From Escherichia coli (GTDB lineage Bacteria; Pseudomonadota; Gammaproteobacteria; Enterobacterales; Enterobacteriaceae): a stretch of 45,643 nt of DNA. The notes under the pieces were generated by a model. It worked only from the letters and a program-made list of their open reading frames with translations. It was not told where the DNA came from and did no database searches. The first letter of the stretch is position 1. Every line of letters starts with the position of its first letter. Where the stretch lies: NCBI RefSeq assembly GCF_003334355.1, contig NZ_QOWP01000030.1; one strand, 5' to 3'. Below are positions 40,938 through 42,203 of the stretch, in pieces. Both the position numbers and the translations under genes were made by a program.

Positions 40938-42203
40938 GTGTCAAAGGCAACCGAACAAAACGACAAGCTCAAGCGGGCGATAATTATTTCAGCAGTGCTG
41001 CATGTCATCTTATTTGCGGCGCTGATCTGGAGTTCGTTCGATGAGAATATAGAAGCTTCAGCCGGAGGCGGCGGTGGTTCGTCCATCGACGCTGTCATGG
41101 TTGATTCAGGTGCGGTAGTTGAGCAGTACAAACGCATGCAAAGCCAGGAATCAAGCGCGAAGCGTTCTGATGAACAGCGCAAGATGAAGGAACAGCAGGC
41201 TGCTGAAGAACTGCGTGAGAAACAAGCGGCTGAACAGGAACGCCTGAAGCAACTTGAGAAAGAGCGGTTAGCGGCTCAGGAGCAGAAAAAGCAGGCTGAA
41301 GAAGCCGCAAAACAGGCCGAGTTAAAGCAGAAGCAAGCTGAAGAGGCGGCAGCGAAAGCGGCGGCAGATGCTAAAGCGAAGGCCGAAGCAGATGCTAAAG
41401 CTGCGGAAGAAGCAGCGAAGAAAGCGGCTGCAGACGCAAAGAAAAAAGCAGAAGCAGAAGCCGCCAAAGCCGCAGCCGAAGCGCAGAAAAAAGCCGAGGC
41501 AGCCGCTGCGGCACTGAAGAAGAAAGCGGAAGCGGCAGAAGCAGCTGCAGCTGAAGCAAGAAAGAAAGCGGCAACTGAAGCTGCTGAAAAAGCCAAAGCA
41601 GAAGCTGAGAAGAAAGCGGCTGCTGAAAAGGCTGCAGCTGATAAGAAAGCGGCAGCAGAGAAAGCTGCAGCCGACAAAAAAGCAGCAGAAAAAGCGGCTG
41701 CTGAAAAGGCAGCAGCTGATAAGAAAGCAGCGGCAGAAAAAGCCGCCGCAGACAAAAAAGCGGCAGCGGCAAAAGCTGCAGCTGAAAAAGCCGCTGCAGC
41801 AAAAGCGGCCGCAGAGGCAGATGATATTTTCGGTGAGCTAAGCTCTGGTAAGAATGCACCGAAAACGGGGGGAGGGGCGAAAGGGAACAATGCTTCGCCT
41901 GCCGGGAGTGGTAATACTAAAAACAATGGCGCATCAGGGGCCGATATCAATAACTATGCCGGGCAGATTAAATCTGCTATCGAAAGTAAGTTCTATGACG
42001 CATCGTCCTATGCAGGCAAAACCTGTACGCTGCGCATAAAACTGGCACCCGATGGTATGTTACTGGATATCAAACCTGAAGGTGGCGATCCCGCACTTTG
42101 TCAGGCTGCGTTGGCAGCAGCTAAACTTGCGAAGATCCCGAAACCACCAAGCCAGGCAGTATATGAAGTGTTCAAAAACGCGCCATTGGACTTCAAACCG
42201 TAA
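40938..42203 (+). CDS. tolA: Tol-Pal system protein TolA
   Basis: 421-aa ORF from GTG, with N-terminal transmembrane anchor, long Ala/Lys/Glu-rich helical repeat domain and globular C-terminal domain. Confidence 0.95.
   Translation: MSKATEQNDKLKRAIIISAVLHVILFAALIWSSFDENIEASAGGGGGSSIDAVMVDSGAVVEQYKRMQSQESSAKRSDEQRKMKEQQAAEELREKQAAEQERLKQLEKERLAAQEQKKQAEEAAKQAELKQKQAEEAAAKAAADAKAKAEADAKAAEEAAKKAAADAKKKAEAEAAKAAAEAQKKAEAAAAALKKKAEAAEAAAAEARKKAATEAAEKAKAEAEKKAAAEKAAADKKAAAEKAAADKKAAEKAAAEKAAADKKAAAEKAAADKKAAAAKAAAEKAAAAKAAAEADDIFGELSSGKNAPKTGGGAKGNNASPAGSGNTKNNGASGADINNYAGQIKSAIESKFYDASSYAGKTCTLRIKLAPDGMLLDIKPEGGDPALCQAALAAAKLAKIPKPPSQAVYEVFKNAPLDFKP

Follow-up and report, generated by a model that had tools for sequence, protein, structure and literature searches.

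Does the low-complexity coding DNA in the middle of Escherichia coli tolA consist of true tandem repeats that alter the length of TolA from strain to strain, and by which route would such changes arise? We addressed this question for positions 41150-41830 of a 45,643-nucleotide stretch of E. coli DNA (contig NZ_QOWP01000030.1), which was analyzed as a whole and is referred to here as the window. With very high confidence we conclude that the interval encodes a rod-forming part of TolA domain II carrying a variable in-frame tandem array, that its length changes are repeat-mediated, and that the open frames on the opposite strand are by-products.

Identity and genomic context of tolA

The translated gene matches the NCBIfam equivalog profile for TolA, NF007065, with 554 bits (cut-off 213) and the profile TIGR02794 with 308 bits (cut-off 59). 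The gene shares 100% nucleotide identity with tolA as annotated in E. coli K-12 and many other strains, and each of the 5,426 complete E. coli genomes searched yielded a tolA match. The window overall shows 98.3-99.7% identity to the K-12 record and does not derive from K-12, although its tolA allele is that of K-12. The surrounding genes are arranged in the order ybgC-tolQ-tolR-tolA-tolB-pal-cpoB, in agreement with the K-12 annotation (Table 1). All four residues of the SHLS motif (S18, H22, L29 and S33) are legible in the translation, and residues 292-421 match the solved domain III structures 1tol, 2x9a, 3qdp and 1s62 by sequence comparison; recent TolQRA structure entries include full-length TolA chains. 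Equivalog profile, gene context and the layout of motif and domains all identify the protein as TolA. The assignment of the interval to the central domain of TolA, made in a preliminary description of this DNA, is borne out by the NF007065 match, the identity to K-12 and the tol-pal neighbors: the interval corresponds to residues 71-298, i.e. most of domain II.

Table 1. Features of the tolA locus and its surroundings, in window coordinates
Feature	Position	Strand	Evidence and remarks
tolQ	39749-40441		ORF position, corresponding to K-12 annotation
tolR	40445-40873		ORF position, corresponding to K-12 annotation
tolA CDS, cell envelope integrity protein TolA	40938-42203	+	ORF listing; GTG start, 421 aa plus stop, 1266 nt
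Non-repetitive E/A/Q/K/R-rich N-terminal part of domain II, residues ~71-137	41150-41348	+	Maximum z 1.8; indels in 0 of 13 variant alleles
Weak 24-bp (8-residue) repeat, ~4 degenerate copies, ADAKAKAE-like	41349-41482	+	Tandem Repeats Finder; lag-24 z 3.8; 24-nt spacing; duplication in allele L010
Degenerate upstream extension of the 15/18-bp register	41547-41609	+	In-register copies from 41547, 60-62% identity
78-bp higher-order repeat, two copies, 66/78 identical	41608-41766	+	Tandem Repeats Finder; direct comparison
Main tandem-repeat tract, 13 imperfect 15- or 18-bp units, K(K)AAA(E/D/A), residues 225-293	41610-41816	+	Unit map; Tandem Repeats Finder; lag z
Repeat units TR12-TR13	41787-41816	+	Kept in 13 of 13 variant alleles at ≤2 mismatches
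224-aa antisense ORF, composition artefact, A/S/F low-complexity translation	41276-41950	-	ORF listing; shuffles
154-aa antisense ORF in second frame, composition artefact, L/Q/P/S low-complexity translation	41395-41859	-	ORF listing; shuffles
tolB	42333-43628		ORF position, corresponding to K-12 annotation
pal	43639-44184		ORF position, corresponding to K-12 annotation

The interval encodes a helical spacer

Ala (101), Lys (48) and Glu (36) account for 185 of the 226 codons of the interval, and its base composition is A 38%, G 32%, C 22% and T 8%; the A/G richness and the low T content follow from the residue make-up of the rod. Neither Pro nor Gly occurs among the 228 residues from 71 to 298. 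A single-sequence AF2 prediction of TolA places helices at residues 3-34, 60-200 and 204-302 and a mixed alpha/beta fold at 334-414. The two long helices have pLDDT values of ~80-89, and the break at 201-203 coincides with a dip in pLDDT. With a pTM of 0.25, this prediction is usable for secondary structure alone and is silent on a hairpin versus one extended rod.

Opposite charges at positions i and i+4 are the classic salt-bridge pattern of stable alanine-based helices. Such pairs occur 44 times in the interval versus 22 ± 3.9 expected in residue shuffles (z 5.7). In its N-terminal segment (41150-41348), opposite-charge pairs at i,i+3 are also enriched (z 3.3), and the helix predicted there has a pLDDT of 84-89. 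Helix propensity, the lack of helix breakers and the i,i+4 charges together characterize a salt-bridged helical spacer. That the region forms such a spacer had been suggested beforehand and is supported by the AF2 helices, the absence of Pro and Gly, the charge pairs and published work, in which domain II is described as extended and alpha-helical, built on the repeat Lys1-2-Ala3-4-(Glu/Asp), and a structured helical domain II is required for full stabilization of the outer membrane (PMC10666116). It is mainly in gamma-proteobacteria that domain II is alpha-helical (PMC12204202).

TolA length varies in frame among E. coli strains

For a comparison of tolA length across isolates, we took 97 distinct full-length tolA rows, evenly spaced in the ranked BLAST list, from the 5,426 complete genomes. 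Polymorphism was found: there are 14 length classes between 1170 and 1311 nt, and all offsets from 1266 nt are multiples of 3. Read as frequencies in a sample of ranked rows, rather than a full census, from a genome collection skewed to clinical isolates, the 1266-nt form is present in 67 of the 97 genomes (69%), followed by 1311 nt (nine genomes) and 1299 nt (seven). Lengths of 1290, 1251 and 1215 nt occur in two genomes each, and 1170, 1185, 1218, 1221, 1233, 1263, 1275 and 1296 nt in one genome each.

All 13 variant alleles retrieved encode an intact TolA of 389-436 aa, and their indels, with alignment ambiguity allowed for, lie without exception within 41366-41794. In 12 of these alleles, the indels fall in the 15/18-bp tract itself or in its degenerate upstream extension; the deletions of the O157:H7 alleles L006 and L012, for instance, start at 41574 and 41562, and allele L004 (-96 nt) has ~7 units. 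The remaining allele, L010 from strain GPEC606, encodes 429 aa and has 24 nt perfectly duplicated in tandem after 41366, within the 24-bp repeat. A VNTR is defined by copy-number polymorphism that preserves the frame and is confined to the repeat, and this is what the 97 genomes and 13 alleles show. The proposal that TolA varies in length between strains by in-frame changes has held, with all indels of its 14 classes that we could place falling in repeats.

Point changes show a different distribution. The 17 distinct substitutions found outside the indel zone all affect third codon positions and are synonymous in the tolA frame, indicating strong purifying selection on this frame; per allele, 13-19 of 13-21 substitutions are synonymous. 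Four alleles, L001, L007, L008 and L011 (-48, +30, -33 and -45 nt, respectively), differ from the window allele by one indel each and by no substitution at all, suggesting that indels arise faster than point changes in the tolA tract. As judged from these sequences, this would give indirect support to a mutation rate of the tolA repeat well above the point-mutation rate.

Recombination and slippage as proposed routes of length change

The indel junctions carry traces of their origin. Most simple deletions have direct repeats of 8-12 nt at their junctions; the 15-nt deletion of L002 has one of 5 nt. The insertions of 24, 30 and 33 nt each repeat the neighboring copy exactly in tandem, with identity extending over 35-39 nt, whereas the 45-nt insertion is no exact tandem duplication and matches its neighbor over 8 nt alone. 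For the divergent alleles L006, L009 and L013, several small gaps are needed and no clean junction repeat is seen; a series of events, gene conversion or an ambiguous alignment may lie behind them instead of a single simple event.

Contraction of the tolA tract has been measured with a reporter allele carrying stop codons in TR3, which gave a contraction frequency of 6.9e-5 (PMC3477136). A recA mutant kept 15% of the contraction rate, a uvrD mutant showed a 3.3-fold higher rate and mutS had no effect; the laboratory contractions were overwhelmingly deletions of five units, termed “5-TR” (PMC3477136). In-frame slippage, which the preliminary description had given as the cause, is by these data at most a minor route of a contraction process that depends mostly on RecA.

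We consider it unlikely that the length changes arise mainly by RecA-independent replication slippage. Such a process would fit the short junction microhomologies of 5-12 nt, single-unit indels such as the 15-nt deletion of L002, and the contraction remaining in the recA mutant, and the published assay covered contractions and never expansions (PMC3477136). Against it stand the behavior of the recA, uvrD and mutS mutants and the size of the dominant deletion: a loss of ~78 bp, or five units, matches the longest homology in the tract (20 nt exact, 66/78 overall) and not the nearest-neighbor unit. We therefore favor recombination between misaligned repeats as the main route, and we infer that the 5-TR deletion arises preferentially by recombination within the 78-nt higher-order repeat, whose exact core measures 20 nt. 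Such a preference would account for the loss of five units instead of a single one. Indels in the natural alleles (15-96 nt) cover a wider range of sizes than the laboratory 5-TR deletions, so more than one route probably contributes.

The true tandem array is confined to about one-third of the interval

The preliminary description had read all ~680 bp of the interval as repeats of a 30-nt unit. As a control for periodicity that allows for the tiny codon alphabet, we used in-frame codon shuffles of each sub-segment, for which the 95th percentile of the maximum z is ~3.0. Segment 41595-41815 shows strong periodicity at lags of 15, 33, 78 and 96 nt (z 4.6-5.5), and segment 41351-41594 has a single significant lag of 24 nt (z 3.8). 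No periodicity was found in 41150-41350, where the maximum z is 1.8 against the codon shuffles. The periodicity to be looked for by self-alignment, as had been proposed as a check, is thus present in 41351-41594 and 41595-41815 and absent from 41150-41350.

Tandem Repeats Finder reported three periods: 15 nt at 41595-41806 (13.3 copies), 78 nt at 41608-41766 (2.0 copies, 88% matches, score 255) and 24 nt at 41351-41415. In a second repeat search, the 15/18-nt register extended over 41547-41815 and the 24-nt register over 41349-41482. The longest exact direct repeat comprises 20 nt and occurs at 41613 and 41691, i.e. at 78-nt spacing. The 30-nt motif GCNGCNGAAAARGCNGCNGCNGAYAARAAA has five matches at ≤3 mismatches, all inside 41619-41759, versus none in 100 window shuffles. 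We therefore reject a 30-nt unit spanning the whole 680 bp: the basic unit measures 15/18 bp (5-6 residues). The interval does contain low-complexity repetitive coding DNA, as had been claimed, but the true tandem array extends over ~210-270 bp, roughly one-third of the 680 bp, supplemented by a weak second repeat of ~130 bp, and the aperiodic first ~200 bp just show an E/A/Q/K-rich bias. Head-to-tail units in multiples of 3 inside a coding sequence, the features of an intragenic VNTR, are found at 41610-41816.

These results also bear on the view that 41150-41830 is merely a biased Ala/Lys/Glu helix without true tandem repeats or special mutability, its periodicity being a consequence of the small codon alphabet. 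This describes 41150-41348 well, with no periodicity over shuffles and no indels in the 13 alleles, and it is largely true for 41483-41546, too. For the interval as a whole we regard it as very improbable, and for the tract at 41547-41816 it is already refuted: periodicity exceeds that of codon shuffles at four lags with z up to 5.5, an exact 20-nt repeat recurs at 78-nt spacing, the length polymorphism seen falls wholly in repeats, and the published contraction frequency given above (PMC3477136) speaks for special mutability.

Short-read assemblers can collapse repeats, and the length differences could in principle be assembly or sequencing artefacts of a repetitive region; we reject this origin and give it next to no chance, since the records compared all come from complete-genome assemblies, lengths differ by multiples of 3 without exception, nine independent genomes among the sampled rows share the 1311-nt allele and seven the 1299-nt allele, the tract of ~210 bp is below typical read length, and PCR sizing of 234 isolates gave a matching picture (PMC3477136).

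Open frames and hairpins on the opposite strand

Two long ORFs run antisense to the interval (Table 1), and the three antisense frames together contain six stops over 226 codons. An antisense stop requires TTA, CTA or TCA on the sense strand. Codon shuffles contain 12.5 ± 2.4 antisense stops and have a longest open run of 150 codons on average; the observed run of 183 codons is reached by 21% of the shuffles. The density of antisense stops is 0.4-1.3 per 100 codons in the region versus 0.4-8.2 in neighboring genes. Since the shuffles reproduce the open frames, composition suffices to explain them. The stop-free antisense frames that had been ascribed to the repeats are real as ORFs, and their origin in the make-up of this coding DNA has been confirmed.

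The minus strand also carries nine terminator-like hairpins versus 2.7 ± 1.5 expected, because GCWGC palindromes from Ala-Ala codons are followed by T runs from reversed Lys codons. These hairpins are another by-product and do not speak for a function.

The chance that either antisense ORF is a real overlapping gene is practically negligible, despite their lengths of 224 and 154 aa and a number of stops below that of the shuffles: the translations are of extreme low complexity, shuffled sequences have similarly long open runs, the substitutions among alleles are nearly all synonymous in the tolA frame, the strand is rich in terminator-like hairpins, and none of the records examined (13 variant alleles and K-12) has a gene annotated there.

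Discussion

Gene identity, repeat anatomy, the in-frame polymorphism confined to repeats, the junction repeats and the cause of the antisense frames were established by the present analysis, and none of the analyses made yielded evidence against the core reading. The function of the helical rod, the dependence on RecA, the mutation frequency and the phenotypes are drawn from the literature. Taken together, we propose the following model. The interval encodes most of domain II, a long alpha-helical rod that crosses the periplasm from the TolQR motor in the inner membrane to the TolB-binding C-terminal domain. This rod consists almost wholly of Ala, Lys, Glu and Asp, with opposite charges four residues apart favoring helix-stabilizing salt bridges. 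Its ~70 C-terminal residues (41610-41816) are specified by the in-frame array of 13 units, overlain by the 78-bp duplication and preceded by the 24-bp repeat. Misaligned pairing of direct repeats deletes or duplicates whole numbers of codons or units. According to the published genetics, this pairing mainly represents RecA-dependent unequal recombination, with a minor RecA-independent route that is presumably slippage. The outcome is a set of TolA proteins of 389-436 residues among strains, all of which retain the reading frame and leave the N-terminal anchor, the two final repeat units and domain III untouched. Open antisense frames and minus-strand hairpins are by-products of GCN, AAR and GAR codons.

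Such variation matters for the cell envelope, as domain II determines how far the connection from the TolQR motor to the outer membrane reaches and how stiff it is, and the length of this domain affects tolerance to detergent and bile, tolerance to osmotic and acid stress, and the entry of filamentous phages (PMC3477136; PMC10666116). Deoxycholate tolerance rises with repeat number, phage fd plates best at 13 units, and a combination of salt and low pH favors 6-13 units (PMC3477136). It is conceivable, though we are rather doubtful, that the natural length alleles are not a product of neutral drift and that opposing selection has made the tract a reversible means of tuning how far the TolA rod reaches or how stiff it is. 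Bile salts would then favor longer tracts, and acid or osmotic stress and filamentous phages would favor others. The recurrent single-indel variants on an otherwise identical haplotype fit ongoing switching. If the tuning reading is true, allele length should track lineage or niche. The idea of tuning was already proposed by Zhou et al. (PMC3477136), and a population-scale test alone would be new.

Among the alleles of our sample, those of 394 and 404 aa in O157:H7 and the 436-aa allele in ~9% of genomes are candidates for such tracking.

For annotation, our results mean that length differences between E. coli tolA genes are genuine in-frame repeat polymorphism and not errors, and that neither the long ORFs nor the terminator-like hairpins of the opposite strand should be annotated. 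The tract is also usable as a small typing marker.

The locus is the same as the tolA TR region of Zhou, Michiels and Aertsen (PLoS One 2012, PMC3477136), who found the region to consist of 13 imperfect units, each 15 or 18 bp long, with further degenerate copies upstream of TR1. Among their 234 isolates, the number of units ranged over 8-16, and 66% had the 13-unit allele. In-frame copy-number variation, the upstream degenerate units and the conserved last two units agree between both studies; in that work, TR12-TR13 were never included in contractions and sit in a segment reported to bind YbgF/CpoB (PMC3477136). The frequency of the commonest allele is likewise close, with 69% (1266 nt) in our sample versus 66% (13 units) in theirs. 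Our L004, with ~7 units, is below their range, and the 24-bp repeat that varies in L010 finds no mention in the sections at hand (PMC3477136); nothing essential differs otherwise. The tolA repeat polymorphism is real, was correctly identified and had already been published in 2012. Minor additions of the present study are the genome sample, L004, the variation of the 24-bp repeat in L010, the connection drawn from the 78-nt repeat to the 5-TR deletion, and the quantification of the antisense artefacts. A further article by Zhou, Vanoirbeek, Aertsen and Michiels (Res Microbiol 2012) is reportedly also concerned with the E. coli tolA TR region.

The KAAAE unit of the tract is essentially the engineered rigid linker EAAAK. 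With (EAAAK)n linkers and natural charged single alpha-helices, the TolA rod shares the five-residue unit KAAAE/KAAAD, the twofold excess of i,i+4 pairs and the lack of Pro and Gly. It differs from the engineered linkers in being natural and in mixing five- and six-residue units, and in vivo a monomeric helix, a hairpin or a bundle would all be possible.

Domain II of TolA as an alpha-helical rod that spans the periplasm has been described for the K-12 protein (Levengood et al. 1991, as reported in a citing source; Williams-Jones et al. 2023, PMC10666116), and our reading shows no difference from these accounts. Domain II of TonB, a homologous force transducer, provides an analogous repetitive low-complexity center that spans the periplasm and is partly interchangeable with that of TolA in chimeras (PMC10666116). 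Unlike the TolA rod, however, it is built of Pro-rich Glu-Pro/Lys-Pro repeats, adopts a polyproline-II conformation instead of an alpha-helix and has no sequence similarity to domain II of TolA (PMC10666116, PMC12204202).

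Length variation in tolA

Besides its main tandem-repeat tract, tolA carries a second, weaker repeat of about four degenerate copies, which is likewise polymorphic: in strain GPEC606, a perfect 24-nt tandem duplication after position 41366 yields a TolA protein of 429 amino acids. The available part of the 2012 paper on the tolA repeat tract by Zhou, Michiels and Aertsen (PLoS One, PMC3477136) makes no mention of this 24-bp repeat.

TolA is short in two genomes of O157:H7 strains (L006, 404 aa; L012, 394 aa), where the deletions start at 41574 and 41562, respectively, upstream of TR1, the first unit of the main tract. 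Two further variant alleles (L009 and L013) have a rearranged upstream unit pattern in common. Since alignment of this pattern requires several small gaps, we suggest that both alleles belong to an older, separate tolA lineage.

Antisense features of the tol-pal cluster

On the minus strand opposite the tolA repeat, we found nine terminator-like sites consisting of a hairpin plus a T-run (41453-41814), compared with 2.7 ± 1.5 in shuffled sequences. These sites arise where a GCWGC palindrome, formed by Ala-Ala codons, precedes Lys codons in reverse orientation, and they are probably a by-product of the sequence. They could nevertheless damp antisense transcription. Elsewhere in the cluster, the two long antisense ORFs opposite tolQ and pal/cpoB are not low in sequence complexity and most likely represent shadow ORFs.

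Features within the window
Feature	Position	Strand	Remarks
Weak tolA repeat	41349-41482		period 24 bp (8 residues)
Antisense ORF, 190 aa	39830-40402	-	opposite tolQ
Antisense ORF, 206 aa	43597-44217	-	opposite pal/cpoB
CpoB_ybgF thermometer (Rfam RF02782)	44085-44223		142 bits, full model; pal end to cpoB start
naRNA4 (RF02564)	27359-27430, 27450-27521		two adjacent matches; score exactly at/just over gathering score
ES036 sRNA	5587-5629		one match, 75 bits
tRNA array Lys(UUU)-Val(UAC)-Lys-Val	45150-45643		reaches window end
RtT RNA	45157-45325		within tRNA array region

RNA families and comparison with K-12

Searches for RNA families returned the matches listed in the table, among which the naRNA4 and ES036 families are REP-element-like intergenic repeats.

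Within the tRNA array at the window end, a Lys and a Val tRNA (45440 to 45567) are spaced by 127 nt, whereas a K-12 record has 225 nt here. This repetitive array is thus a further element with a spacer that varies in length between strains. Over positions 20947-45515, the window is 98.3-99.7% identical to the K-12 locus (sdhA-to-tRNA region), with sdhA/sdhB as the most divergent part (98.3%), and thus originates from another E. coli strain. Despite this divergence, its tolA allele is identical to that of K-12.
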